A stretch of 24,000 nt of DNA from an uncultured Gammaproteobacteria bacterium (GTDB lineage Bacteria; Pseudomonadota; Gammaproteobacteria; Thiohalobacterales; Thiohalobacteraceae). The stretch spans positions 341,632 through 365,631 of the forward strand of contig CAVTTB010000008.1 of NCBI GenBank assembly GCA_963737555.1, in the 5' to 3' direction. Shown piece by piece: positions 1 to 17,641 of this stretch (its first letter is position 1; each line of letters begins with the position of its first letter). Position numbers and translations under genes: made by a program. The notes under the pieces are model-generated. The model was given only the letters and a program-made list of their open reading frames with translations, did not search any database and was not told the DNA's origin.

Positions 1-777
1 CGGGCAGTGCGGACTTCAATTACGGTGGCGCCGTCCTTGCCATTTTCTTCGCCGCGCTGCTGTGCGAGTTCGTCGACTCCAGTCTCGGCATGGGCTATGG
101 CACCACCCTCACGCCGCTGCTGTTGTTGTTCGGTTACGAGCCGTTGCAGATCGTGCCTGCGGTGCTGCTGAGCGAATTGATCACCGGCCTGGCCGCCGGC
201 GCCATGCACCAACGCGACGGCAACGTGGATTTCTTCCACGATGCCGCCGCGCGGCGCACCACGCTGTTGCTCGCATCGCTGAGCGCGGTCGGCGCGCTGG
301 CGGCGGTGGCGCTGGCCATCCAGATATCCAAATTCTGGTTGGGGATGTTCATCACCGGCATCGTCATATCCATGGGCGTGGTGATACTTGCCACGCGCCA
401 TCGGCAACTGCGTTACCGCACGGGCGGCATCGTCGCCATCGGCGCGGTGGCCGCGTTCAACAAAGGTTTGTCCGGCGGCGGCTACGGGCCGCTGGTGACC
501 GCGGGTCAAGTGGTGTCGGGATTGCCGGCCAAGCGCGCCGTTGCCGTGACCTCGGTGGCGGAGTCGGTGACCTGTCTGGTCGGTTTGCTCGGTTATCTCG
601 CTCGTCGGCAAAACCCTGGCGTGGGACCTTGCCGTGCCACTGACGATGGGCGCGTTGCTGTCGGTACCCATGGCCACCGTCACGATCCGTCATCTTCCCG
701 AGCATGTCGTGCGCGGCCTGGTCGGTACAGTCACGGTGGTGCTGGGTGTGGTGGCGTTGTTGAAACTGGTCAGTTAA
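1..777 (+). CDS. TauE/SafE-family anion (sulfite-exporter-like) membrane protein. The 5' end is cut by the window edge, and there is an apparent +1 frameshift near nt 598-607.
   Basis: From nt 3, the frame of ORF 90..989 reads ...AIFFAALLCEFVDSSLGMGYGTTLTPLLLLFGYEPLQIVPAVLLSELITG..., a hydrophobic multi-TM sequence. After about nt 600 this frame becomes Arg/Gly/Pro-rich nonsense. The next frame then reads GKTLAWDLAVPLTMGALLSVPMATVTIRHLPEHVVRGLVGTVTVVLGVVALLKLVS and stops at TAA 775-777. Confidence 0.6.
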
Positions 778-1683: not shown

Positions 1684-2839
1684 ATGTATTCCAACAGTAT
1701 CAATACGCGTTCCATGCTCGCCGATTATCATATCGAGGGCATGATGCTGCGTTATAGCGTATTCATCCCCAAACTCTATAACTTCTGTAAGTCGCTCGGT
1801 TTCGAGCCGGGGCGCATCATGCCGTCGCGCGCCTTCTGTTCCGATGAAAGTCAGGGCTTCCCGATCATCCTGATCACCAAGCACTTTGGAACCTTCCCGT
1901 TCAATCATGGCCAAGTGGGTGGCGTCATCGCCACCGATCGTCACGGTCCGCATGCGGAACATGGCAAGGATATGGTGATCATCCAGGCCAGCCATGTCGG
2001 CTATGATCCGGAAACGAAAACCTTCGGCACTTATCGGCGTCTGCAATGCGAGCAACATGATATGTCCGCCAATTGCGGCAAGATCGTGGCCGTGTTGGAC
2101 TGGTACCAGCAGGAGTATCGCTTCGCGCAGGAAAATATTTATCTTGAATCCCATGACGGGGGGTTCTATCTGATCATCGACAATCAGCTGCTCAACAATT
2201 CCCGACCCGAAGGTCTGTTCCTGAATATCGAGCGCATGGTGCAGCCGGACCTGGACGGCACCTTGCGCCCGACGCAATCCTTCAGCACCTCCAAATGCTA
2301 TCCCGCGTCCACTCAATTGAAGGAGCTGTTCGGCGTGGATGCCTGGCAGAAAAATGCCCGCACGGAGATCGGCGCGCATTTGCTGCCGGAGTTGTTCTGG
2401 TTCAAGCGTGAAGTAACGGGTGACGAGGAGGGCAAGGAACATCTGGAGCGTAATCTTCTCAAGCCGATGCCGTGGATCGTGACATCCGTTGCGCCGTTGC
2501 TGACGGCGGCTCAGGTCAATACGCAGGTCGAGTTCGATCGCACCTTCCGCACCATCGTCAAAGACCACAGTTATCGCGGCAAGAACGTGGTCTATCTGGC
2601 CGGACTCAATATCGACATCTCGCCGCAGCCCGGTCAATTGTTTCCGCTTGACCAAGTTCGTGCCGTGGGCGGCCTATATACAAGAGGCCAATGGCCACCA
2701 TTACACGCTGGAACAGGCGGAGCTGATGGACCGGCTCAAGGCGCAGAGCGACGAAAATCCTGATCAGATCGATCTGGAAAAGGCCATTACCGAAATGCGC
2801 CTGGCCGAGGAGATTCGCATCGCGCTGGCAGCGCCTTAG
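1684..2839 (+). CDS. LCIB-family-like / beta-carbonic-anhydrase-fold candidate protein (~384 aa). Apparent +1 frameshift near nt 2640-2651.
   Basis: ORF 1684..2763 continues in the next frame as ORF 2648..2839: ...ISPQPGQLFPL|TKFVPWAAYIQEANGHHYTLEQAELMDRL...AAP*. The candidate Zn site is FCSDESQG (Cys52-x-Asp54, nt 1837-1845), ASHVGYD (His104, nt 1993-1995) and ANCGK (Cys131, nt 2074-2076). This order and spacing match what I recall for the Cys/His/Cys site of LCIB-family proteins. The family assignment is from memory and has not been searched. Confidence 0.55.
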
Positions 2840-3033: not shown

Positions 3034-5058
3034 GTGCCGCTGGCCTTAGTCGAATTTGCCGTTGCCGCCGCGCTCTGCTCCGGGCTGCTCGCGCTGGTCC
3101 TGTACCGGTTCACCTCATTACAAAAGTATGTTGCCTTCGGCTTGCTTGGCATCTCGGGTTTGTCTGCCCTGCTCGGCGGCATTCAGGTCCTGCTCGCCAA
3201 ATCGGTGCTGGTCGATGTCCTCATGATCGGTCTGCCGTGGCTGCACTGGCATCTGCGGCTGGATCCGCTGTCCGGTTTTTTCCTCGCCATCATCGGCATC
3301 GTCACGGTGGCCGTGTCCATCTATGGTCCCGCCTATGTGCGTGAATATGAGCACGGCAAACAGCCGCTGGCGGTACTGTCTTTGTTCACCGGGTTGTTTA
3401 TCGCCGGCATGATGCTGGTGGTGTTGGCCGATGACGCGTACGCGTTCATGGTCGCCTGGGAATTGATGTCGCTGTCGAGTTACTTCCTGGTGTCCTATCA
3501 ACACCAGCACGCGGCCAACCGGCGTGCTGCCTACCTTTATCTATTGATGGCGCATGTCGGCGGGCTGACCATCATGCTCGGTTTCGGCGTGTTGGCGGCC
3601 TTCGGCGGCGGCTTGACCTTCGACATCATGCGCAGCGCCGAGCTGTCGCTGTTCTGGTCCTCGACGGCTTTCTGTCTGGCGTTGTTCGGTTTCGGCATGA
3701 AGGCGGGGCTGGTGCCGGTGCACGCGTGGCTGCCCGAGGCGCACCCGGTCGCGCCCTCGCATATCTCGGCGTTGATGAGTGGCGTGATGTTGAAGATCGC
3801 CCTCTATGGTCTGATCCGGTTTAGCTACGATCTGATCGGCGAGGTCCACTGGGGCTGGGGCTTCGGCATGCTGATGCTGGGCGTGGCCTCCGGTCTGCTG
3901 GGCGTGCTGTACGCGATTGTGCAGACCGATCTGAAGCGGCTGCTGGCCTATTCGTCGGTGGAAAATATCGGCATCATTTTTATCGGCCTGGGCCTGTCGA
4001 TGATTTTCGTCGGCTCTGGCCACCAGGAACTGGGTGCGCTGGGCCTGATTGCATCCCTCTATCACATTCTCAATCACGCCTTGTTCAAGAGCCTGTTGTT
4101 CCTCGGCGCGGGTGCCGTGTTGCAAAGCACCCATGAAGGCAATCTGGAACAGATGGGCGGGCTGATTCATCGCATGCCGGTCACGGCCGTGTTGTTCCTG
4201 GTGGGGTGTATCAGTATCGCGGGCCTGCCGCCGTTCAATGGCTTCGTCTCCGAATGGCTGAGTTTCCAGACGGCACTTCAGGCGCCGATTCTGCAAGATG
4301 GCGTGTTGCGCGCCTTCATCCCGGTGGCTGCCGCAGCCTTGGCCTTGACCGGTGCGTTGGCGGCAGCGGCGTTCGTGAAGACCTTCGGCGTGGCATTCCT
4401 GGGTGTGGCGCGCAGCCGGCATGCGCGTCAGGCGCACGAGGTTGCGCGCAGCATGCAGGTCGGCATGGGACTGTTGGCGGCGCTGTGTCTGCTGTTCGGT
4501 ATCTTCCCCACGACCACCATCGGCGTGATCGATGCCATCCCAGAGTTGTTATTCAATAAGGGTCTGCCCAGCGCGTCCGCCGAAGGCTGGCTGTGGCTGA
4601 CGCCGATCGCACCGGAAGTTTCTTCCTACTCCGCACCGTTGGTCTTGATCGGTATCGCCCTGGCGTGGGGGCTCGGTTATGCGTTGCTGCACCCGCGTCG
4701 ACGCGAGCACCCGGTGCGGCGCAGCGCGCCTTGGGATTGCGGCTTCGGTCCGGTCAACCCGCGCATGCAATACACCTCGACCGCGTTCTCGATGCCGATT
4801 CGACGCATCTTCAAGCCGGTCTGGGATGTGCAAGAGCCGGTCGAGGAAACCCGCGATGCCAAACAGCCGCTGTTGCTGACCGGCATCCGCCACCAGATGC
4901 AGATCGGTGATCGCTCCTGGCCGGTCCTGTATGAACCTATTGCCCATTGGGTGCTGGTCGCGGCGCGCAAGATCGGCGGCATCCAGACCGGCAGTATCCG
5001 TACCTATCTGGCCTATTCGTTCTTCACGTTGCTGGTGTTGTTATGGCTGATTACCTAA
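3034..5058 (+). CDS. hyfB: Hydrogenase-4 subunit B-like, NuoL/antiporter-like membrane subunit (Ehr-type complex)
   Basis: 674 aa from GTG 3034, with AGGA 7 nt upstream. The ORF-track start at 2851 would translate the tandem repeat. Motifs: WELMSLSSYFLV, GLVPVHAWLPEAHPVAPSHISALMSGVMLKIALYG, LLAYSSVENIGII and a C-terminal PWDCGFG domain. The length matches HyfB-type proteins. Confidence 0.88.
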   Translation: MPLALVEFAVAAALCSGLLALVLYRFTSLQKYVAFGLLGISGLSALLGGIQVLLAKSVLVDVLMIGLPWLHWHLRLDPLSGFFLAIIGIVTVAVSIYGPAYVREYEHGKQPLAVLSLFTGLFIAGMMLVVLADDAYAFMVAWELMSLSSYFLVSYQHQHAANRRAAYLYLLMAHVGGLTIMLGFGVLAAFGGGLTFDIMRSAELSLFWSSTAFCLALFGFGMKAGLVPVHAWLPEAHPVAPSHISALMSGVMLKIALYGLIRFSYDLIGEVHWGWGFGMLMLGVASGLLGVLYAIVQTDLKRLLAYSSVENIGIIFIGLGLSMIFVGSGHQELGALGLIASLYHILNHALFKSLLFLGAGAVLQSTHEGNLEQMGGLIHRMPVTAVLFLVGCISIAGLPPFNGFVSEWLSFQTALQAPILQDGVLRAFIPVAAAALALTGALAAAAFVKTFGVAFLGVARSRHARQAHEVARSMQVGMGLLAALCLLFGIFPTTTIGVIDAIPELLFNKGLPSASAEGWLWLTPIAPEVSSYSAPLVLIGIALAWGLGYALLHPRRREHPVRRSAPWDCGFGPVNPRMQYTSTAFSMPIRRIFKPVWDVQEPVEETRDAKQPLLLTGIRHQMQIGDRSWPVLYEPIAHWVLVAARKIGGIQTGSIRTYLAYSFFTLLVLLWLIT

Positions 5059-5999
5059 ACGCCTGGCTGCTGGCGCTGTTGCAGACGCTGCTGTTCGTCG
5101 CCAGCGCACCGTTGCTGGCGGGTTGGATCAAGGTCGTCAAATGCCGCTTGCAGAACCGCACGGCGCCGTCGCTGTTGCAGCCGTATGCGGATCTGCGCAA
5201 GCTGTTCTCGAAGAATCTGGTGATGGCCGAAAACGCCTCGTGGATCTTCCGCGCCGCCCCCTATATTTTGCTGGGTTCGACCATTCTCGCCGCGGCGGTG
5301 GTCCCGTTGGTCGCCGTGCGACTGCCGACGGCGGCGATCGCCGACGTGATCGTGCTGGTCGGTTTTTTTGCGTTGGGGCGTTTCTTTCTGGCCCTGGCCG
5401 CGATGGATATCGGCACCGCCTTCGGCGGCATGGGCTCGTCGCGTGATATGACCGTCGCCTCGCTGGCGGAGCCGGCGATGCTGATGGCGGTGTTTACCCT
5501 GGCCATGACCGCGAACAGCACCAATCTGTCGACCGCCGTGCAGTTCACGCTGGAAAGTGGTTTGGTGTTGCGACCGTCCTTCATCTTCATCACTGTTGGA
5601 TTGATGATGGTAGCAGTGGCGGAGACCGGCCGTATCCCGATCGACAACCCGACCACCCATCTCGAATTGACCATGCTGCACGAGGCGATGATCCTCGAAT
5701 ACAGCGCCCGTCACTTGGCCTTGATCGAGTGGGCGGCGCAGATCAAGTTCATGGTCTTCGGTGTGTTGATCGCCAATATCTTCCTGCCCTGGGGCATTGC
5801 CACCGAATTCACGCCGCTGGCGCTGGCAACCGGCGCCTTCGCGATTGCACTGAAACTGCTGGTGCTGGTGGTCATACTGGCCATCTCCGAGACCATCGTC
5901 GCCAAGATGCGCCTGTTCAAAGCGCCTGAATATCTCAACATCGCCTATCTGCTGTGCCTGCTCGGCATGCTCAGCCACGTGATTCTGGAAGTGGGTTGA
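5043..5999 (+). CDS. hyfC: HyfC/HycD-like, NuoH-like membrane subunit
   Basis: 318 aa from ATG 5043, overlapping the hyfB stop. Motifs: LLQPYADLRKLF and ETGRIPIDNPTTHLELTMLHEAMILEYS (NuoH/HycD signature). Multi-TM. Confidence 0.88.
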   Translation: MADYLNAWLLALLQTLLFVASAPLLAGWIKVVKCRLQNRTAPSLLQPYADLRKLFSKNLVMAENASWIFRAAPYILLGSTILAAAVVPLVAVRLPTAAIADVIVLVGFFALGRFFLALAAMDIGTAFGGMGSSRDMTVASLAEPAMLMAVFTLAMTANSTNLSTAVQFTLESGLVLRPSFIFITVGLMMVAVAETGRIPIDNPTTHLELTMLHEAMILEYSARHLALIEWAAQIKFMVFGVLIANIFLPWGIATEFTPLALATGAFAIALKLLVLVVILAISETIVAKMRLFKAPEYLNIAYLLCLLGMLSHVILEVG

Positions 6000-6047
6000 G
6001 ACGATGATGCGTATGCAACCGGTCAGATCAGTAAGGCATAACCGTTC

Positions 6048-6728
6048 ATGAATAGCTTCGCGAATCTTAGCCTGTACGAACAGGCCATCATGATGCTGTC
6101 GGCCTTGGTGCTGTTCACCTCGTTCGCACTGCTGGCGCAGTCGCGCATGCTCAATATGATCAATGTGTTCGCTTGGCAGGGCGTGCTGCTGTCGGCCACC
6201 ACGGCGTTGGTCGCCTTGGTCTCCGGCCAGCATCATCTGTATACCTCCGCGCTGCTCACCATGGTGCTCAAGGCCATGTTGATCCCTTATATACTGCGCC
6301 ATCTCGTCATCCGTCTGGACATACACAGGGAAGTGGAGTCGGTGGTGCGCCCGGCCGTGGTGCTCATGTCCGGGGCCTCGCTGGTGGTGTTTTCCTACTG
6401 GGTCGCCTTGCCGATCGTACATTTGTCCACACTCATCACCCGCAACACGATCGCCGTGAGCATCGCCATCGTGCTGTTGGGCATGTTGATGATCATTACC
6501 CGCAGCAAGGCGGTCTCGCAGGTGGTGGGTTTCATGTCCATGGAGAACGGCCTGTTCTTCGCCGCGGTGGTGTCCACCTACGGCATGCCGATGGTGGTTG
6601 AGCTGGGCGTTGCGTTCGACGTGCTGGTGGCCGCCATTCTGTTCGGTGTGTTCTTCTTCCAAATCCGCGCCTCGATCGACTCACTGGACGTGGACCGTCT
6701 CAATCGCCTGACGGAGACGGATAAGTGA
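6048..6728 (+). CDS. hyfE: Hydrogenase-4 component E-like membrane subunit
   Basis: 226 aa, multi-TM. The C-terminal part, VVGFMSMENGLFFAAVV...VELGVAFDVLVAAILFGVFF...LDVDRLNRLTE, parallels E. coli HyfE (…LMENG…VEIGIATD…LDVNNLTALKG). Confidence 0.85.
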   Translation: MNSFANLSLYEQAIMMLSALVLFTSFALLAQSRMLNMINVFAWQGVLLSATTALVALVSGQHHLYTSALLTMVLKAMLIPYILRHLVIRLDIHREVESVVRPAVVLMSGASLVVFSYWVALPIVHLSTLITRNTIAVSIAIVLLGMLMIITRSKAVSQVVGFMSMENGLFFAAVVSTYGMPMVVELGVAFDVLVAAILFGVFFFQIRASIDSLDVDRLNRLTETDK

Positions 6729-8194
6729 ATTTTGCCTTGGAATTTATGCTGGGGTTGCCGCTGTTCGGCGCCATCCTGCTGGGCGCGTTGGGCCACAGCC
6801 GTAAGGCCGGCTGGATAAATATTGGTTTCTGCGCCGCGAGCTTTGTCGCAACCGTGCTGCTGGCCTTGGATGTGCTGGATCATGGCCCGCAGTTATTTCA
6901 TGATCGGCTGTTCTATGTCGACGCCTTCAACGTCTACCTGCTGGTGTTGACCGCGTTTGTCGGCATGACCACGGCGATTTTTTCGCGCCCGTACATGGAA
7001 CATGAGAAACAACGTGGTCGCCTGAACAACCGACGCATGCAGTTGTATCACTCGATGTACCAGGGCTTTCTGTTCGCCATGCTGTTGTGCTTGTCCACCA
7101 ACAATCTGGGCTTGCTGTGGGTGGCGATGGAGGGTGCGACCCTCGCCACGGTGTTATTGGTATCGCTGTACCGCACCCCCGAGGCGGTCGAGGCGGCGTG
7201 GAAATATTTTATCCTCTGCGGCGTCGGTATCGCCCAGGCGCTGTTCGGCACGGTGCTGTTGTTCTTCGCCGCCGAGCGCATCATCGAGCATCGCGACGAC
7301 GCCCTGCTGTGGAATGTATTGCACGAGAATGCGCACCTGATGGACCCGACGGTATTGTCGCTGGCGTTCGTGTTCCTGCTGGTGGGTTACGGTACCAAGG
7401 TGGGTCTGGTGCCCTTGCACAACTGGTTGCCGGATGCGCATTCCGAAGGTCCGACACCGATGTCGGCGGTGCTGTCGGGTCTGCTGTTGAACGTCGCCCT
7501 GTATGCCTTGGTGCGGGTGAAGATGTTGGTCGATGGTTCCTTGGATACCGAACTGGCCGGCCAGCTGATGATGGGTTTCGGCATGGCGTCGTTCCTGGTC
7601 GCGAGTCTGTTCTTGCATCGGCAACGCGACATCAAACGCATGTTCAGTTACTCCTCCATTGAACACATGGGACTGATGACCTTTGCCTTCGGCCTCGGCG
7701 GTCCACTGGCGACCTTCGGCGCGCTGTTGCACATGACCGTGCATTCGCTGACCAAGTCGGCGATCTTCGTCACCGTCGGTCATGCCGCACATATCGCCGG
7801 TACGCAATCCATCGAGAAGATTCGCGGTCTGATCCACACGCAGCCCACGGTCGGCTGGGGCCTGTTGATCGGCACCACGGCCATCGCCGGCTTTCCACCC
7901 TTCGGACTTTTCACCAGCGAGTTCCTGTTGCTCACCGCGACCATGAAGAGCTGGCCCTGGCTGACCTTGCCCCTGCTGGTCGGCCTGGTGGTTGCCTTTG
8001 CCGGCCTGTTCCGGCATCTGCATCCGATGGTTTATGGTGACAAGCCGGAAGGTCAGCTGGCCGTCAAAGCCAATATGTGGCCGGTGGCGATCCACCTGGC
8101 GCTGGTGTTGTGGCTGGGCCTGTCGATTCCTGAGTTCTTATCGCGCTGGTTTGATCAGGCAACGCTGTTGATCTCCGGCAGTTCATGGTTGTGA
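6725..8194 (+). CDS. hyfF: Hydrogenase-4 subunit F-like, NuoN/NuoM antiporter-like membrane subunit
   Basis: 489 aa. GTG 6725 overlaps the hyfE stop. Motifs: GTKVGLVPLHNWLPDAHSEGPTPMSAVLSGLLLNVALYAL, MFSYSSIEHMG and IAGFPPFGLFTSEF. Confidence 0.88.
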   Translation: MNFALEFMLGLPLFGAILLGALGHSRKAGWINIGFCAASFVATVLLALDVLDHGPQLFHDRLFYVDAFNVYLLVLTAFVGMTTAIFSRPYMEHEKQRGRLNNRRMQLYHSMYQGFLFAMLLCLSTNNLGLLWVAMEGATLATVLLVSLYRTPEAVEAAWKYFILCGVGIAQALFGTVLLFFAAERIIEHRDDALLWNVLHENAHLMDPTVLSLAFVFLLVGYGTKVGLVPLHNWLPDAHSEGPTPMSAVLSGLLLNVALYALVRVKMLVDGSLDTELAGQLMMGFGMASFLVASLFLHRQRDIKRMFSYSSIEHMGLMTFAFGLGGPLATFGALLHMTVHSLTKSAIFVTVGHAAHIAGTQSIEKIRGLIHTQPTVGWGLLIGTTAIAGFPPFGLFTSEFLLLTATMKSWPWLTLPLLVGLVVAFAGLFRHLHPMVYGDKPEGQLAVKANMWPVAIHLALVLWLGLSIPEFLSRWFDQATLLISGSSWL

Positions 8195-9814
8195 GCATGG
8201 AAACTGAAACCACGAGCATCGCAGCGCCGTTCGCCTGGCTGCCCAAGTTCCGGGAAACGCTGCAGAGCGAACACGTGCTGCTGCACCCCGACGCGGAGCA
8301 GACGCTCCATCCGGCGCGCACCATGGCCGCCGATCACGAAGACTGGGGGCGCATCGCGCAACAGGCGGCGAAATTCAAATTACGCTGGTGTGCCGGCTGG
8401 GCACAGGATGTGGGTGAGCAGATCCAGATCAACACCTGCTTCGTCTATCAGGGCGATTATCTGGTGCTGCGCACGGCTGTCGACAAGTCTACGTCGATTA
8501 TGCCCTCACAGACACCGGCCTACATCGCGGCGGACCGGCCCGAGCGGCATATGCAGGATATGTTCGGCATCGTCTTTACCGATCACCCGGACAGCCGCCG
8601 TTGGACGCGACACATGGCCTGGGGCGACGGCGATTTTCCGCTGCGCAAGAGTTTCCCGGTTGCAGGTCATCCGCCGGCGATCACCCCGCCCAACAATGAA
8701 TATAAATTCCTGACAGCACAGGGTCCGGGCGTATACGAGATTCCGGTCGGGCCGGTGCATGCCGGCATCATCGAACCCGGACACTTCCGCTTTCAGGCCG
8801 TCGGCGAGACGGTGCTGAATCTGGAAGAACATCTCGGCTATGTGCACAAGGGCATCGAGAAGATCGCCGAAGGGCGCGATCCCGCGGGGCTTGCGCGTCT
8901 GGCCGGTCGTGTCTCCGGTGATACCACGGTCGCGCACACCTGGGCCGCCTGCATGGCGATGGAGCGCGCCGCCGGCATCGAAGTGCCGCCGCGTGCGTTG
9001 CTGCTGCGCGCGGTGATGGCCGAGAGTGAACGCATCGTCAATCACCTGTGGGATCTCGCCATGGTGTGCAACGATGTGGCGTTCGCCTTTCCGTTTTATC
9101 AATTCAGTCGCCTGCGCGAGCAATGGCTGCGCGTGTTGGCGGCCGGCTTTGGTCACCGTCTGATGATGGACCGCATCGTGCCTGGTGGTGTCGCGACCGA
9201 TATCACGGCGGCGGCGGCCGAGCAACTGAATACGCTGTGTGTCGAGGTCCGCAAGGAGCTCGACGGCATGATGCACGTCTTCGACGACAACGCCTCGTTC
9301 CAGGATCGCGTGGTCACCACCGGCATCCTCAGTCCGGAATTGGCGCAGCTCTACGGCACTGTCGGTTATGTCGGCAAGGCCAGCGGCCTGTGTTTCGACG
9401 TGCGTCAGGATGCGCCTTATTCACCCTATGATCGCTTCAAAGTTGTAGCCCCGTGTTACAGCGCACGGCGATGTCGATGCTCGTGTCAGGGTGCGCATCG
9501 ATGAGATCAATGCCTCATCAGAGCTGTTGCAGCGCTTGTTGAACGAGCGGGGCCTGACCGCGGATACGCTTGCCGCGCCTTGGTCCGCGCCGGCAGACGG
9601 AGCGGAAGGTGTCGGCATGGTCGACGGTTGGCGCGGCGAGATTTTCGCCTATGTGAGTTTCGCGGCCGACAATCGCATTGCGCGTTTTTTCCCGCGCGAT
9701 CCGAGCTGGACCACCTGGCCGGCGTTGGAAAAACTCATTCGCGGCAATATCGTGCCGGACTTTCCGGTGTGCAATAAATCCGTCAACGGTTCGTATTCCG
9801 GTCATGATCTTTAA
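8185..9814 (+). CDS. NuoC-NuoD-like 'large subunit' homologous to HyfG/HycE but lacking all four NiFe cysteine ligands (Ehr-type, non-hydrogenase). Apparent +1 frameshift in the C-run at 9449-9452.
   Basis: Conserved core motifs: VGPVHAGIIEPGHFRF and EEHLGYVHKGIEK. The L1 site reads RVSGDTTVAH (nt 8908-8937) where RxCGxCxxxH is expected. The C-terminal site reads NGSYSGHDL* (nt 9785-9814) where DPCxxCxDR is expected. ORF 8185..9504 continues as ORF 9491..9814 one frame over: ...PYDRFKVVA|RVTAHGDVDARVRVRIDEINASSELL... ATG 8197 is an alternative start. Confidence 0.85.
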
Positions 9815-9893
9815 TACACTTTTATCCAGCCGAGGACGTGCAGTCGGCGGCTTGAATGCCGCGGACTCGCAGCTGCATGCACAAGGTCATCCC

Positions 9894-10403
9894 ATGCTGA
9901 GAATCCTCAATAAGATCCTCAAGACTGGCAACCTCACCGAGGCCCTGCCCGAAGACGAGCGCAAGGTACTCGAAGAGATCGGTGCGCAGGTCAAGGCCGG
10001 CATCGGCAAACGCTTTGCCGGCAGTCTGGCGATCCGCGCCGTGGATGCCGGTTCCTGCAACGGCTGCGAACTGGAAATTCACGCGCTCAACAATGCCATC
10101 TACAATCTGGAACGCTTCGGTATTCACTTCGTTGCCTCGCCGCGGCATGCCGATATGCTGTTGGTGACCGGTCCCGTGTCGCGGCATATGCAGACCGCGT
10201 TGATCCGCACCTACGAGGCCACGCCCGAACCCAAGCTGGTGATCGCCGTCGGTGAGTGCGGTGCCAATGGCGGCGAATTCGGCGTGAGCTATGCCTCCTG
10301 CGGTGCCGTGAGCAATGTCATCCCCGTCGATGCTGTCATCCGTGGCTGCCCACCCACCCCGTTAGACCTGATGCGCGGCATCCTGCAGGCCATCGGCGAC
10401 TGA
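9894..10403 (+). CDS. NuoB/HycG/HyfI-like small subunit with intact [4Fe-4S] ligand set
   Basis: 169 aa from ATG 9894. The ORF-track start at 9678 overlaps the large-subunit 3' end. Motifs: GSCNGCELE, VASPRHADMLLVTGPVS, VAVGECG and IRGCPPTP. Confidence 0.88.
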   Translation: MLRILNKILKTGNLTEALPEDERKVLEEIGAQVKAGIGKRFAGSLAIRAVDAGSCNGCELEIHALNNAIYNLERFGIHFVASPRHADMLLVTGPVSRHMQTALIRTYEATPEPKLVIAVGECGANGGEFGVSYASCGAVSNVIPVDAVIRGCPPTPLDLMRGILQAIGD

Positions 10404-10625: not shown

Positions 10626-11078
10626 TCAATCTCCAGTCTGGTGCAGGCATTTTTCGATCACGTGCTGCAAATCATCCAACACGGAACCCATGATGAGGCC
10701 GGCGCAGTGATGGTATAAAGAAAGCTCGCACGTGATCGGCTCATATAAATTATCACGTCCGTGAATTTGGAAATCTCGCCAAGCAAGTACTAACTGATCA
10801 TCTGCACAGCTATCGATGCAGAACCAAGCCTCATCGTACAAAATAATATCCAGGCCGCGATGTTGTTCCATGCTTAGACGCAATGGATTCTCCAGCCGCA
10901 ATAAGGCCAGGCGCACTCGGTTATAACATGCTGCTTCGATGTGCTTTGGCACACTTCGTAATGGCAATGTATCCAAGGTAGGCTTCATGTATTTACCGCA
11001 TCTGGACCATGATTGAAATATTGATTTCCTCAGTCGCGTTGGTAAGCGTGGTGCGAGTGTTGATCTTTGGTATGCCAT
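10626..11078 (-). CDS. Hypothetical protein (120-150 aa) immediately downstream of cbbX, with low G+C
   Basis: 150-aa ORF starting 5 nt after the cbbX stop, with an alternative start at ATG 10988 (MKPTLDTLPL...). I recognise no family. A hand count over 10621-10860 gives about 47% G+C, against about 58-67% in the flanking lines I counted. Confidence 0.45.
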   Translation of the reverse strand: MAYQRSTLAPRLPTRLRKSIFQSWSRCGKYMKPTLDTLPLRSVPKHIEAACYNRVRLALLRLENPLRLSMEQHRGLDIILYDEAWFCIDSCADDQLVLAWRDFQIHGRDNLYEPITCELSLYHHCAGLIMGSVLDDLQHVIEKCLHQTGD

Positions 11079-11082
11079 GCCC

Positions 11083-12018
11083 TCAACTATCTTCGCTATC
11101 GAGTTTGCCTTCTATAAAAACCCGGCTGGCCAGAATATCTTCGGCTTCGATGGTCATCAGGTCGACTTTGCTAAGTGATTTTTGTGCGTTGGCAAAGAGT
11201 CGATTGGCCTGACGCAGACGCGCGCGATCCAGAGCATTGCGCACCGAGCGCGCGTTGGCGAAATGTGCCAGCTTCATGCGTAGCGTGATGTACTCGAAGA
11301 AGGCCTTTTCAGCATCGGGGCTGAAGCGATAGTTTTGCGCCGCCAACATCAGCCTGGCGATGTGCAGCAATTCTTCTGCGCTGTAATCTGGGAAATCGAT
11401 GTGGTGCGCGATGCGCGAGCGCATACCGGGATTGCTGTGGAAGAATTTGTCCATGCGATCTTTGTAACCGGCCAGAATCACCACCAGATCGTCGCGGTTG
11501 TTTTCCATGACCTGGAGTAGAATCTCGATCGACTCGGCACCGTAGTCGCGCTCGTTTTCGGGCTTATAGAGATAATAGGCTTCGTCGATGAACAGCACGC
11601 CACCCATGGCTTTCTTGATCACTTCCTTGGTTTTCGGCGCGGTGTGGCCGATGTATTGGCCCACCAGATCGTCACGCGTGACGGAGACCAGATGGCCTTC
11701 GCGCACATAGCCCAGACGATGCAGGATCTCGGCCATACGCATGGCTACAGTGGTCTTGCCGGTACCGGGGTTGCCGGTAAAATTCATATGCAGTGTCGGT
11801 GTCTCGGAGGTCAGCGCAAATTGCTTGCGCAGACGATCCACCAATAGCAGAGCCGCAATTTCCCGAATACGGGTTTTGACGGGCACTAAGCCAATCAATT
11901 CGCGGTCGAGTTTGTCGAGAACTTCTTTTACATTCGAGGCTTCAAATTCGGTTTCAAGATTGACAGGGGTATCATCCGCCAAGATGGCATCACCCTGTGG
12001 GTTTTCTGAATTATTCAT
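11083..12018 (-). CDS. cbbX: CbbX, AAA+ red-type RuBisCO activase
   Basis: 311 aa from ATG 12018 (MNNSENPQ...). Motifs: Walker [75 protein letters not shown] and [17 protein letters not shown]. Confidence 0.93.
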
Positions 12019-12059
12019 ATAATTTTCCAACAACGCCGATAGTCGCGGGTTAGTAAAGT

Positions 12060-12083
12060 GGCGGGTGAAAGAGTTCACCCGCC
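12060..12083 (-). other. Intercistronic 10-bp perfect stem-loop between cbbS and cbbX
   Basis: GGCGGGTGAA (12060-12069), loop agag, TTCACCCGCC (12074-12083). No clear U-tract follows on the transcribed strand. Confidence 0.5.
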
Positions 12084-12102
12084 AGCACGTCAACTTACTC
12101 GA

Positions 12103-12537
12103 TCAGTAACGCTCGCCTTCCGATTTGTCAGTAGCATAGGAGTGGATGCTGTAACGCATAGTGCGCCCCTCAGTTTCCTGACGCACCAGGCCAAAGCCCG
12201 GCTCCTTCTTGGGCCGATTGACAAGGTACGACATGCACACGCTCTCTACACCGCGCACAGCGCTGAATGCGCTGACACGGATGTAATGATTCGGGAATGT
12301 CTTACGACAATTGTTTACTTCCAGCAGGATTCCGGCTGGATCTTTAAGATCGAACATCGGATTGCCAAACATTTCCCAATAGGTGTTGCGTGGGTGCGGG
12401 TCGTCGGTGTATTCGACGCTCAGCGCCCAGCCCTTGCCCAGTGCATATTTGATTTGCGCAGTGATTTGCACATCGGTCAGATCAGGCAGAAAGGAAAACT
12501 GTCCTTGGGTAATGCGATTGCCGAGATTGGTCATCAT
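12103..12537 (-). CDS. cbbS: RuBisCO small subunit (red-type, with C-terminal extension)
   Basis: 144 aa. Motifs: [50 protein letters not shown] and [13 protein letters not shown] ribosome-binding site upstream. Lies 20 nt after the cbbL stop. Confidence 0.95.
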
Positions 12538-12557
12538 AATCAGATTCTCCTTAATGA

Positions 12558-14223
<1,666 letters not shown>

Positions 14224-15591: not shown

Positions 15592-16503
15592 ATGAATATT
15601 ACCCTCCGTCAATTGAACATCTTCGAAGCCGTCGCGCGGCACCTGAATTTCACCAAAGCGGCCGAGGAACTGCATCTGACCCAGCCGGCCGTGTCCATGC
15701 AGATAAAACAGTTGGAACAGGCTATCGAGCTGCCGTTGTTCGATCAGGTCGGCAAGCGGATTTCGCTGACCGAGGCCGGCGAGGAATTGCAACGCTACAG
15801 CCGACAGATATCCACGCTGTTACTGGAAGCCGAGCAGGTCATTGCGGAATTGAAAGGCATCCAGCGCGGTCGCTTGAACATCACCGTGGCGAGCACCGCG
15901 AATTATTTCGTGCCGCGTTTGTGGGCGACTTTTCGAATGCAGCATCCCGGGGTCATGGTCAGTCTCAACGTGACCAACCGTGAAGGACTGATTCGCGCGT
16001 TGGCCGAGAATGAGGCCGATCTGGTGATCATGGGACAGCCACCGGAAGATATGGACTTGGTGGCCGAATCCTTCATGCCCAATCCGTTGGTGGTGATCGC
16101 GCCGCCCAGTCACCCCTTGTGCGATGCGCGTCATATTCCCCTGCAGCGCATGAAGGCGGAAACCTTTCTGGTGCGCGAACAAGGTTCCGGCACGCGCTCG
16201 CTGATGGAGCGGGTGTTTGCGGAGAAGGGTTTGGAGCCCTCGACGCCGATCGAAATGAGCAGCACCGAGGCGATCAAACAGGGTGTAGAGGCGGGTTTGG
16301 GGTTGGCGCTGTTGTCCGTGCATACCTTAGAAATGGAATTGGCGTTGAAGCGTCTCGTGGTGCTGGATGTTGATGGTTTTCCGGTGCTGCGCGATTGGTA
16401 CATCGTACACCGCGCCGGCAAGCGCTTGTCCGCGGTCGCGCAGGCGTTCCGCGATTTCATGCTGCAAGAGACGCCCGCCATCGTGCATGTACCCGAGGTT
16501 TAA
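15592..16503 (+). CDS. Second LysR-family regulator, CbbR paralog
   Basis: 303 aa. LRQLNIFEAVARHLNFTKAAEELHLTQPAVSMQIKQLEQAIELPLFDQVGKRISLTEAG. Collinear similarity to the upstream CbbR along its whole length (e.g. FLVREQGSGTR, EAIKQGVEAGLG). Confidence 0.85.
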   Translation: MNITLRQLNIFEAVARHLNFTKAAEELHLTQPAVSMQIKQLEQAIELPLFDQVGKRISLTEAGEELQRYSRQISTLLLEAEQVIAELKGIQRGRLNITVASTANYFVPRLWATFRMQHPGVMVSLNVTNREGLIRALAENEADLVIMGQPPEDMDLVAESFMPNPLVVIAPPSHPLCDARHIPLQRMKAETFLVREQGSGTRSLMERVFAEKGLEPSTPIEMSSTEAIKQGVEAGLGLALLSVHTLEMELALKRLVVLDVDGFPVLRDWYIVHRAGKRLSAVAQAFRDFMLQETPAIVHVPEV

Positions 16504-16555: not shown

Positions 16556-17641
16556 ATGGATGCCATGGTGGTCGCAACCTTCATCTTGGGATTGGTGCTG
16601 CTGGTCGGCGGCGCCGAGGTTTTGGTGCGCGGCGCTTCGCGTCTTGCGGTGGCGATTGGTGTGTCGCCACTCATCATCGGACTAACTGTCGTCGCTTTCG
16701 GTACGAGTGCGCCAGAAATGGCCGTGAGCGTGCGCTCTGCGCTTAGCGGCCAGGCGGGTGCGGACATCGCTATTGGTAATGTGGTTGGCAGCAATATCTT
16801 TAATGTACTGTTCATTCTTGGATTATCTGCGGCGATTGCGCCGCTGGTGGTGTCGCAGCGCCTGGTGCGCATAGACGTGCCGCTGATGATTGGCGCATCG
16901 GTGCTCATGTTGTTGCTTTCCCTGGATGGCAAGCTGGGTCGTTTGGATGGCGGGTTGTTATTCGCGGGCATACTCGCCTACACGGTGTTTGCCATTCTGG
17001 ACGGACGCAGAGAATCGCAAGCTGTTGCGGCGGAATATGCTGAGGAATTTTCGAAAAGCCCGCGCACGCCGCTGGGCTATCTTATCAATCTGCTGTACAT
17101 CGTCGGCGGTCTGGCCTTGCTGGTGTTGGGTGCACATTGGCTGGTCGACGCTGCTGTGATCATTGCGCGTGCACTGGGCGTGAGTGAGTTGGTGATCGGA
17201 CTGACCATTGTTTCCGTCGGCACTTCACTGCCGGAAGTGGCGACGTCGGTGATGGCAAGCATCAAGGGCGAGCGTGACATTGCTGTTGGCAACGTCGTTG
17301 GCAGCAACATTTTCAATATCCTCGCGGTGCTCGGGCTGGCCGCGTTGGTCGCGCCCGCCGGCGTTAATGTTGCGCCATCCGTATTGAGTTTCGACATGCC
17401 GATCATGATCGCCGTGGCGATTGCCTGCCTGCCGATCTTTTTCACGGGCTACACCATTGCCCGCTGGGACGGTTTCGTGTTTCTGATGTACTACGTGTTG
17501 TACCTCGCCTTTCTGGTCGGATCGGCGGCGGGTTATACCGGGTTGGTGAGTTTCAGTGTGGGTATGCTCACCTTCGTCGTTCCGCTCACCTTGATCACGA
17601 TCAGCATTGCGCTCTGGCGTCAATGGCGAAACAAAATATAG
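16556..17641 (+). CDS. CaCA-family Ca2+/cation (Na+) antiporter, YrbG-like
   Basis: 361 aa, multi-TM, with two alpha-repeats: GLTVVAFGTSAPEMAVS...GNVVGSNIFNVL and GLTIVSVGTSLPEVATS...GNVVGSNIFNIL. Confidence 0.88.
   Translation: MDAMVVATFILGLVLLVGGAEVLVRGASRLAVAIGVSPLIIGLTVVAFGTSAPEMAVSVRSALSGQAGADIAIGNVVGSNIFNVLFILGLSAAIAPLVVSQRLVRIDVPLMIGASVLMLLLSLDGKLGRLDGGLLFAGILAYTVFAILDGRRESQAVAAEYAEEFSKSPRTPLGYLINLLYIVGGLALLVLGAHWLVDAAVIIARALGVSELVIGLTIVSVGTSLPEVATSVMASIKGERDIAVGNVVGSNIFNILAVLGLAALVAPAGVNVAPSVLSFDMPIMIAVAIACLPIFFTGYTIARWDGFVFLMYYVLYLAFLVGSAAGYTGLVSFSVGMLTFVVPLTLITISIALWRQWRNKI

Follow-up and report, generated by a model that had tools for sequence, protein, structure and literature searches.

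What remains of a hydrogenase large subunit once every cysteine that would hold its metal centre has been replaced, and what might such a protein still do? The question is raised by a gene at positions 8185-9814 of a 24,000-nucleotide stretch of DNA, here called the window, from an uncultured gammaproteobacterium of the family Thiohalobacteraceae (assembly GCA_963737555.1, contig CAVTTB010000008.1, forward-strand positions 341,632 to 365,631; all coordinates below are those of the window unless another locus is named). A first-pass annotation, made by eye, described the gene product as a homologue of group-4 [NiFe] hydrogenase large subunits that has lost all four metal ligands and the C-terminal processing tail. 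We conclude, with a probability of roughly 0.8 for identity and generic mechanism taken together, that the gene is ehrL and encodes the NuoCD- and HycE-like cap subunit of a six-subunit Ehr (energy-converting or Ech hydrogenase-related) membrane complex, which is not a hydrogenase, contains an iron-sulfur (FeS) cluster and translocates ions.

The former NiFe pocket

The gene and the two motifs that carry the nickel-iron ligands in true hydrogenases are located as follows.

8185..9814, plus strand: ehrL, a fused NuoC-like and HycE/NuoD-like large subunit (Pfam Complex1_30kDa, NiFeSe_Hases and Complex1_49kDa)
8908..8937, plus strand: L1 NiFe motif in its altered form, R-V-S-G-D-T-T-V-A-H, with Ser for Cys1 and Thr for Cys2
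9785..9814, plus strand: L2 NiFe motif in its altered form, N-G-S-Y-S-G-H-D-L, with Ser for Cys3 and Gly for Cys4, and the stop codon; no HycI-type tail

The residues and coordinates first read by eye (8908-8937 and 9785-9811) are exact, and the TAA stop at 9812-9814 directly follows the NGSYSGHDL codons. The by-eye register, on which the claim of four replaced cysteines depended, is upheld by formal alignment. With the solved Escherichia coli HycE (7z0s_E, expectation value (E) 1e-59), the best match by sequence among solved structures, HMMER sets RVSGDTTVAH opposite RVCGICGFAH and NGSYSG opposite DPCYSC. Aligned by MAFFT to HycE, HyfG and NuoCD of E. coli, the protein keeps the identical register, with NGSYSGHDL opposite DPCYSCTDR, and the ligand cysteines are matched by Ser244, Thr247, Ser536 and Gly539 of EhrL. 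None of the formal alignments places a cysteine at an L1 or L2 ligand position, in agreement with the earlier view that the protein is not a hydrogenase. The remainder of the fold is conserved, as had also been proposed, and the stretches VGPVHAGIIEPGHFRF and EEHLGYVHKGIEK cited for it are present in the window EhrL. At the C-terminus, HycE and HyfG extend 32 residues past ...TDR, whereas the window EhrL and NuoCD end at that column in the MAFFT alignment; EhrL thus ends where mature HycE ends.

These replacements are a property of a family. In an alignment of the best 120 of at least 8000 protein matches (5.8 billion proteins searched; 58-88% identity, 506-548 amino acids), the Cys1, Cys3 and Cys4 columns hold Ser, Ser and Gly in all 121 sequences including the query, and the Cys2 column holds Ser or Thr in 120 of them. 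The L1 Gly-Asp and His are invariant, the Asp-Leu C-terminus is nearly so, and none of the 121 sequences has a C-terminal extension. Even across subfamilies that are only 35% identical, including the Nitrospira type, Ser242, Asp244 and His249 of L1 and Ser534, Tyr535, Gly537, Asp539 and Leu540 at the C-terminus remain invariant (numbering of the related protein P0001). Because the replacement residues are retained over such distances, the former NiFe pocket is, on the evidence of these alignments, rebuilt and fixed rather than abandoned. EhrL cannot bind a NiFe centre and needs no HycI-type processing; neither hyp nor hycI genes were found in the 24-kb window.

An AlphaFold2 (AF2) model of EhrL (predicted local distance difference test score (pLDDT) 80, predicted template-modelling score 0.85) has HycE as its best fold match (template-modelling (TM) scores 0.81/0.83, 25% identity), followed by NuoCD; no Ehr entry is among its top Protein Data Bank (PDB) fold matches. 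In this monomer, pLDDT falls below 50 at residues 159-218, which form the beta1-beta2 loop, and at the last 22 residues, 519-540 (both in P0001 numbering), so the geometry of the remodelled pocket is not readable from it. The two most conserved motifs of EhrL, this loop and the C-terminal SYSGHDL, are therefore its least confidently modelled parts, consistent with their folding only against EhrS and EhrB.

Identity and composition of the ehr cluster

A class of such proteins has already been described. Ehr complexes are defined by a group-4 large-subunit homologue without both CxxC motifs (PMC10284858, PMC4378227, PMC6349859). The Ehr of Sulfobacillus was reported as 'six syntenic genes' with a large subunit lacking RxCGxCxxxH and DPCxxCxxH/R, whose 'function remains unknown' (PMC4378227), and similar statements have been made for comammox Nitrospira (PMC10284858), ammonia-oxidising archaea (PMC10432482) and relatives of Cyanobacteria (PMC6349859). 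In Geobacter, subunits have been named EhrA, EhrC, EhrL and EhrS (PMC7894505). The window shows the same traits, namely the absence of both CxxC motifs, a six-gene cluster and a grouping with cysteine-less sequences. The cluster, ehrA-B-C-D-L-S, is compact and lies on the plus strand at 3034-10403, where ehrL is accompanied by five genes.

3034..5058, plus strand: ehrA, NuoL/HyfB-like antiporter-type subunit of 674 amino acids from the GTG at 3034 (start placed by synteny with the related locus L081); Pfam Proton_antipo_M
5043..5999, plus strand: ehrB, NuoH/HyfC/HycD-like; Pfam NADHdh, E 4e-36; syntenic in 65 of 80 loci
6048..6728, plus strand: ehrC, HyfE-like with a NuoK-like C-terminus; weak Pfam Oxidored_q2; NCBIfam 'hydrogenase 4 membrane subunit' below cut-off
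6725..8194, plus strand: ehrD, NuoM/N/HyfF-like antiporter-type subunit; Pfam Proton_antipo_M
9894..10403, plus strand: ehrS, NuoB/HycG-like small subunit; Pfam Oxidored_q6

The six genes recur in the same order in 80 related genome loci wherever the contig reaches far enough (large subunit 80, EhrA 76, EhrD 76, EhrS 75, EhrC 67, EhrB 65), and this synteny extends to Nitrospira-type loci and to the metagenome locus L124. The known Ehr clusters (Geobacter sulfurreducens GSU0739-45 and those of comammox Nitrospira, Sulfobacillus and ammonia-oxidising archaea) likewise combine a large-subunit homologue lacking both CxxC motifs with NuoL-, NuoH-, HyfE- and NuoM/N-like membrane subunits and a NuoB-like small subunit in six syntenic genes. 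They differ from the window in two respects: its Gamma- and Betaproteobacterial subfamily shares no more than 35-39% identity with the Nitrospira type, and in the window lineage the cluster lies inside a locus with RuBisCO and LCIB-type genes, while about 28% of family loci follow a SulP gene. Neither the RuBisCO/LCIB nor the SulP context was found in the Ehr literature searched, which likewise yielded no paper connecting Ehr with RuBisCO, SulP, carbonic anhydrase or any CO2-concentrating mechanism, and no solved Ehr structure. Because the class is already described, the window cluster is not new as a kind, its cysteine-less and tail-less large subunit is a textbook Ehr trait, and the locus is far less novel than the first-pass annotation supposed. 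The comparison suggests that the new part is the genomic context, an Ehr cluster beside genes for an LCIB-type carbonic anhydrase and RuBisCO.

Phylogenetic placement supports the same identity. A phmmer search over 1.84 billion representatives returned 6623 matches at E <= 1e-3, 899 of them at E <= 1e-30, and the best 140 of the 6623 were aligned with reference sequences. About 100 of these 140 share the cysteine-less pattern R-[VI]-S-G-D-x ... N-L-S-Y-[SA]-G-x-D-L-stop, and 21 keep all four cysteines and are likewise tail-less. In a crude neighbour-joining tree of 101 sequences, calculated without bootstrap, every cysteine-less sequence, including the Nitrospira sequence P0338, falls into one clade, which comprises the window family, a tandem paralogue family and a Nitrospira/L124 family. 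The sister of this clade is the tail-less group with four cysteines, HycE and HyfG branch outside both, and the outgroup is NuoCD. A placement relative to group-4 hydrogenases, Ehr-type proteins and NuoD had been proposed as a check, and EhrL falls among the Ehr-type proteins, beside and not inside the four-cysteine group-4 hydrogenases. Concerning the missing tail, the claim of its absence stands, but the weight given to it does not: the trait is not distinctive, since the nearest four-cysteine group-4 relatives of EhrL are also tail-less, and it was probably inherited from tail-less hydrogenase relatives.

The tandem paralogues are a feature of some Betaproteobacterial loci, which carry parts of a second Ehr cluster either upstream of ehrA (L046, L064, L068) or downstream (L032, L055). 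The extra large-subunit copies in L046, L064 and L068 are also cysteine-less (RVSGDSTVAY ... NLSYSGHDL).

The cluster shares features with both formate hydrogenlyase-type hydrogenases and complex I, and departs from each. Like E. coli HycE and HyfG (group 4a, PDB 7Z0S), EhrL carries a NuoC-like domain fused at its N-terminus and a beta1-beta2 loop of the HycE type (EPGHFR), and the ehr genes are arranged much like hyfB-C-(D)-E-F-G-(H)-I. Unlike them, EhrL lacks the four ligand cysteines and the 32-residue tail cleaved by HycI, and the cluster lacks HyfD and the ferredoxin subunits HyfA, HyfH, HycB and HycF. With NuoD and NuoCD of complex I, EhrL shares the absence of a NiFe site, the NuoC-NuoD fusion as in E. 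coli, the same C-terminal column and NuoB-, NuoH- and NuoL/M/N-like partners. Complex I binds the quinone headgroup through the Tyr of R-x-D/E-Y and a His of the beta1-beta2 loop. The possibility that such a quinone pocket might be present had been raised for this protein, and the alignment speaks against it: the NuoD Tyr column (R-x-[DE]-Y) is Gly245 in EhrL, and the loop is HycE-like (VGPVHAGIIEPGHFRF compared with IGPLHVTSDEPGHFRL) and not NuoD-like in the MAFFT alignment. The NCBIfam NuoD score of EhrL is 192, against a cut-off of 360, and neither the cluster nor the window contains genes for NuoA, E, F, G, I or J.

Automated names for the cluster are misleading. EhrA scores 844 bits against the NCBIfam equivalog 'hydrogenase 4 subunit B' (cut-off 667) and EhrD 778 bits against 'hydrogenase 4 subunit F' (cut-off 543), while homologues of EhrL are named 'Ni,Fe-hydrogenase III large subunit' by JGI and 'NADH-quinone oxidoreductase subunit C' by NCBI. 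All of these labels are wrong, as the first-pass annotation had anticipated for pipelines. An annotation warning is the main present value of the locus: in genomes of autotrophs, thousands of Ehr clusters go under the name 'hydrogenase 3/4' or 'NADH-quinone oxidoreductase subunit C', and the H2 metabolism inferred from such genomes is therefore inflated.

EhrA and EhrD retain the Glu/Lys relay known from the ion channels of complex I and Mrp. Glu of transmembrane helix 5, Lys of helix 7 and Glu of helix 12 are conserved in both EhrA and EhrD (40 of 40 sequences); in helix 8, EhrA has Lys (40 of 40) and EhrD has Asn, like HyfF. EhrS has all four [4Fe-4S] cysteines (SCNGCE, GECG, GCPP), in columns at least 95% conserved among 65 family members aligned with HycG, HyfI and NuoB. 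We therefore propose that Ehr could be a minimal complex-I-like energy converter, in which a change of charge or redox state at the EhrS cluster and in the remodelled EhrL pocket would be coupled to the movement of H+ or Na+ through EhrA-D. The remodelled pocket would be formed by the invariant Ser, Asp and His of the former L1 motif together with the C-terminus Ser-Tyr-x-Gly-x-Asp-Leu-COO-.

Some redox involvement seems likely because the FeS cysteines of EhrS are strictly conserved. In its fullest form, this would make Ehr a redox enzyme working forward or in reverse, either a minimal ion-pumping oxidoreductase linked to ferredoxin or another carrier, or a device for uphill electron transfer driven by the proton-motive force. 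Descent from redox-driven group-4 hydrogenases, the intact NuoH-like and antiporter-like modules and the value of a low-potential reductant to aerobic lithoautotrophs are in keeping with such a role, towards which published speculation also leans (PMC6349859, PMC10432482). However, Ser, Thr and Gly line the former active site, the quinone Tyr is replaced by Gly245 next to a HycE-like loop, and NuoEFG are missing. Further points tell both against a redox enzyme and against the energy converter proposed above: a ferredoxin subunit of the NuoI, HycF, HycB or EchF type, which would serve as the electron wire, was found neither among the six cluster genes nor elsewhere in the 24-kb window by Pfam and NCBIfam searches, and neighbour censuses covering 227 neighbouring genes revealed no recurrent electron donor, acceptor or other redox partner. 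It also weighs against our proposal that every Ehr is so far biochemically uncharacterised, with its function given as unknown in published descriptions (PMC4378227). A redox role, including reverse electron transport, is nevertheless the first of the specific roles in our ranking, held tentatively; energising of inorganic-carbon acquisition comes second and Mrp-like antiport third.

Reading frame and selection

The gene as assembled is interrupted, and this raises the possibility that it is the pseudogene of a hydrogenase, in which case both the frameshift and the loss of the ligands would be signs of decay.

9463, plus strand: single inserted G, the cause of the +1 frameshift in ehrL (blastn against L081 and comparison with the related proteins P0001 and P0002)

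The reading frame is indeed broken here: an open reading frame (ORF) at 8185..9504 (439 amino acids) resumes as 9491..9814 in the +1 frame, and removal of the inserted base yields a corrected EhrL of 542 amino acids. In the blastn alignment, AGC-G-CAC-GGC at 9460-9469 of the window stands opposite AGCAG-CGGC of L081, a relative with an intact frame, and P0001 and P0002 read ...APCYS[S/H]GDVDARV at this site. A CCCC run at 9449-9452 was considered as the frameshift site and ruled out, as the relatives place the extra base at 9463.

Four genes of the window are frameshifted in a similar way: the LCIB-like gene (at 2650), ehrL (9463), purE (~18950, minus strand) and sufB (21863). The inserted bases are G, G, G and T, respectively, each apparently single and exactly on a codon boundary. 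The essential sufB is broken into two pieces, covering profile positions 9-236 and 235-484, purE is frameshifted and fused to purK, and the LCIB-like gene has its extra G although it is intact in P0121, a 98%-identical relative. The four insertions are probably technical or artificial and not mutational, and the ehrL frameshift is probably an artefact because it is one of this set, which includes sufB and purE.

The pattern of substitution argues against decay. Compared with its 88%-identical relative in L081, ehrL has a ratio of nonsynonymous to synonymous substitution rates (dN/dS) of 0.075, at a dS of 0.83, and downstream of the frameshift the ratio in the corrected frame is 0.11 in the same comparison. 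The replacements that might be read as ligand loss occur in hundreds of intact homologues. Because the replacement residues are near-invariant in the 120 homologues and dN/dS is as low as 0.075, ehrL is not decaying but is under strong purifying selection, as the first-pass annotation had suspected from the conservation of the fold. A pseudogene is thus highly improbable, and this and the reading as a true hydrogenase are essentially excluded.

Genomic context and candidate roles

Ehr function is a question of about 20 years' standing, to which this locus offers an entry point, because its context suggests a role that is testable. The cluster lies between a gene for an LCIB-type protein and genes for RuBisCO, its activase and CbbR-like regulators.

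1684..2839, plus strand: LCIB-type (beta-carbonic-anhydrase-like) gene, 194 bp upstream of ehrA; Pfam LCIB_C_CA 24.2 bits, below the 25-bit cut-off
11083..14087, minus strand: cbbX, rbcS and rbcL (form I RuBisCO and activase), convergent with ehrS; NCBIfam CbbX equivalog 535 bits, RuBisCO large subunit 762 bits
14224-15213 and 15592-16503, plus strand: two CbbR-like LysR regulators; best NCBIfam match CbbR for both, below cut-off
16556-17641: Ca2+/Na+ antiporter gene, after the CbbR-like pair

On account of this position a carbon- or ion-related role is proposed, in which Ehr of the window lineage may supply ion-motive work for inorganic-carbon acquisition. We regard this as one possible role among several. 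If true, it would give Ehr a function and add a new module to the bacterial CO2-concentrating mechanisms, with relevance to the engineering of carbon fixation.

The assignment of the upstream gene depends on its predicted fold. Its family has 2575 matches of about 380 amino acids, called 'hypothetical protein' wherever named, with invariant Cys52, Asp54, His104 and Cys131. For an AF2 model (pLDDT 80.5) the top eight PDB matches are all LCIB, LCIC or PtLCIB4 (E down to 4e-7, target TM scores 0.64-0.74), followed by a cliff, whereas a sequence-profile search against the PDB gave no match, so that LCIB was recovered by fold comparison only. By this comparison the large bacterial family has the fold of LCIB, the beta-carbonic anhydrase of the algal CO2-concentrating mechanism.

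The carbon genes are also linked to ehr in L081, where the series rbcL-rbcS-cbbX-x-x-cbbA immediately precedes ehr in the same orientation; the two layouts differ by one inversion. A metagenome scan with the LCIB-like profile yielded 40 loci of at least 6 kb, one of which, L124, holds a complete distant Ehr cluster, with the LCIB-like gene starting 41 nucleotides after ehrS. Its EhrL is 39% identical to that of the window and reads RISGDTTVGH ... NLSYAGNDL-stop. Chance same-strand adjacency of two given single-copy genes would be expected in about 0.1 of 120 loci by a rough estimate, so the two LCIB/Ehr juxtapositions, in different orders, exceed chance, albeit in a post hoc test. Other LCIB-like metagenome loci (L092-L171) often place the gene beside BicA-like SulP, CbbR-like LysR and RbcS-domain genes (e.g. 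L145 8468-13132), and beside msrA.

Several observations weigh against a carbon role. An LCIB-like gene is adjacent to ehr in only about two of the 120 loci examined, and RuBisCO only in the window lineage and in L029. Upstream of ehrA in L081 (3998-4533), only three pieces of the LCIB-like gene are left, amounting to about 535 of 1150 bp, with the ehr genes intact. In the window, the 194-bp gap between the LCIB-like gene and ehrA holds a terminator-like and a promoter-like match, both at chance frequency. Nitrospira-type clusters have no carbon-related or transport neighbours, and the SulP proteins encoded next to ehr are of the generic TIGR00815 sulfate-permease type, about 24% identical to the BicA-like SulP found beside LCIB-like genes. 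The idea that RuBisCO and LCIB-like genes might be family-wide neighbours of ehr was rejected, as tblastn matches to these genes were confined to the window lineage, L029 and L124.

A more specific variant would be a dedicated vectorial CO2 hydration system, with the LCIB-type enzyme docked on an antiporter-like Ehr subunit and ion flow pulling the conversion of CO2 to HCO3- off equilibrium, as a third solution beside NDH-1MS/CupA and DabAB. These known analogues use the same NuoL-type subunits (PMC13144422, PMC6981117). The resemblance to NDH-1MS, with CupA on NdhD3/F3, and to DabAB extends to a carbonic-anhydrase-type gene beside NuoL/M-type subunit genes in an autotroph with RuBisCO close by; in the window, however, the carbonic anhydrase is LCIB-type and not CupA or DabA, and the linkage, known here from genes alone, is rare and not obligatory. 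The variant draws on the LCIB fold of the upstream gene, on the adjoining RuBisCO and CbbR genes in a family rich in autotrophs, and on two tight and apparently independent juxtapositions with EhrL proteins only 39% identical (upstream in the window, downstream in L124). Yet the LCIB-like gene is not adjacent in 79 of the 80 genome loci and degraded in L081, LCIB-like genes are mostly located elsewhere, the Nitrospira and Geobacter Ehr clusters have no such context, and the conserved EhrS FeS cluster would be left unexplained. We consider the variant unlikely.

Transporter genes are the other recurrent element. Neighbouring ORFs were chosen by a codon-usage score trained on the ehr genes of each locus; a choice by length favoured antisense ORFs in GC-rich DNA. 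Among the upstream co-oriented neighbours in the window's Ehr family, SulP occurs at 15 of 54 loci and CNNM-CBS-CorC at 9-11 of 54, with no other recurrent neighbours, and no gene family recurs downstream of ehr. SulP and CNNM-CBS-CorC (Mg2+/Co2+ efflux-type) genes often stand together and co-oriented directly before ehrA (L009, L010, L022, L026, L028 and others, from Acidiferrobacterales and Muproteobacteria metagenome-assembled genomes). In L124 an NhaD-type Na+/H+ antiporter gene (411-1826) lies 94 nucleotides upstream of the Ehr cluster.

Such neighbours would suit an Mrp-like secondary cation/proton antiporter, in which the cap is structural or regulatory and Na+ or H+ gradients are provided for co-encoded transporters, including the NhaD of L124 and the Ca2+/Na+ antiporter of the window; EhrA and EhrD have kept the Mrp-type channel residues. 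Against this, a passive cap would hardly account for FeS cysteines and an EhrL pocket that are so strictly conserved. To our knowledge, true Mrp operons lack homologues of NuoB, NuoD and NuoH. This role therefore appears unlikely on present evidence.

The family loci come mostly from sulfur-, iron- and hydrogen-oxidising autotrophs and from methanotrophs, as judged from record titles; cultured carriers include Thiohalomonas denitrificans, Thiomonas intermedia and Ferrigenium sp. UT4. It is conceivable, if doubtful, that Ehr complexes in general are ion-motive engines for inorganic-carbon or anion uptake in chemolithoautotrophs, working here with an LCIB-type carbonic anhydrase and elsewhere with SulP; alongside NDH-1MS/CupA and DabAB, they would then represent a third case in which a CO2-uptake system evolved independently from complex-I-type ancestry.

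A few minor features of the window complete the description. The two CbbR-like regulators stand in tandem beside the divergently transcribed rbcL. Between ehrS and cbbX, an ORF at 10626-11078 (minus strand, 150 amino acids) has no Pfam or NCBIfam match and a low codon-model score; in L081, cbbX is followed by two small ORFs that are unrelated to it. An Rfam scan of the window detected no RNA family. Near the start of the window, an ORF at 90-989 (299 amino acids) without a family match combines a membrane-protein-like start with a low-complexity end that overlaps cysC (830-1501), and may be another frameshifted gene.

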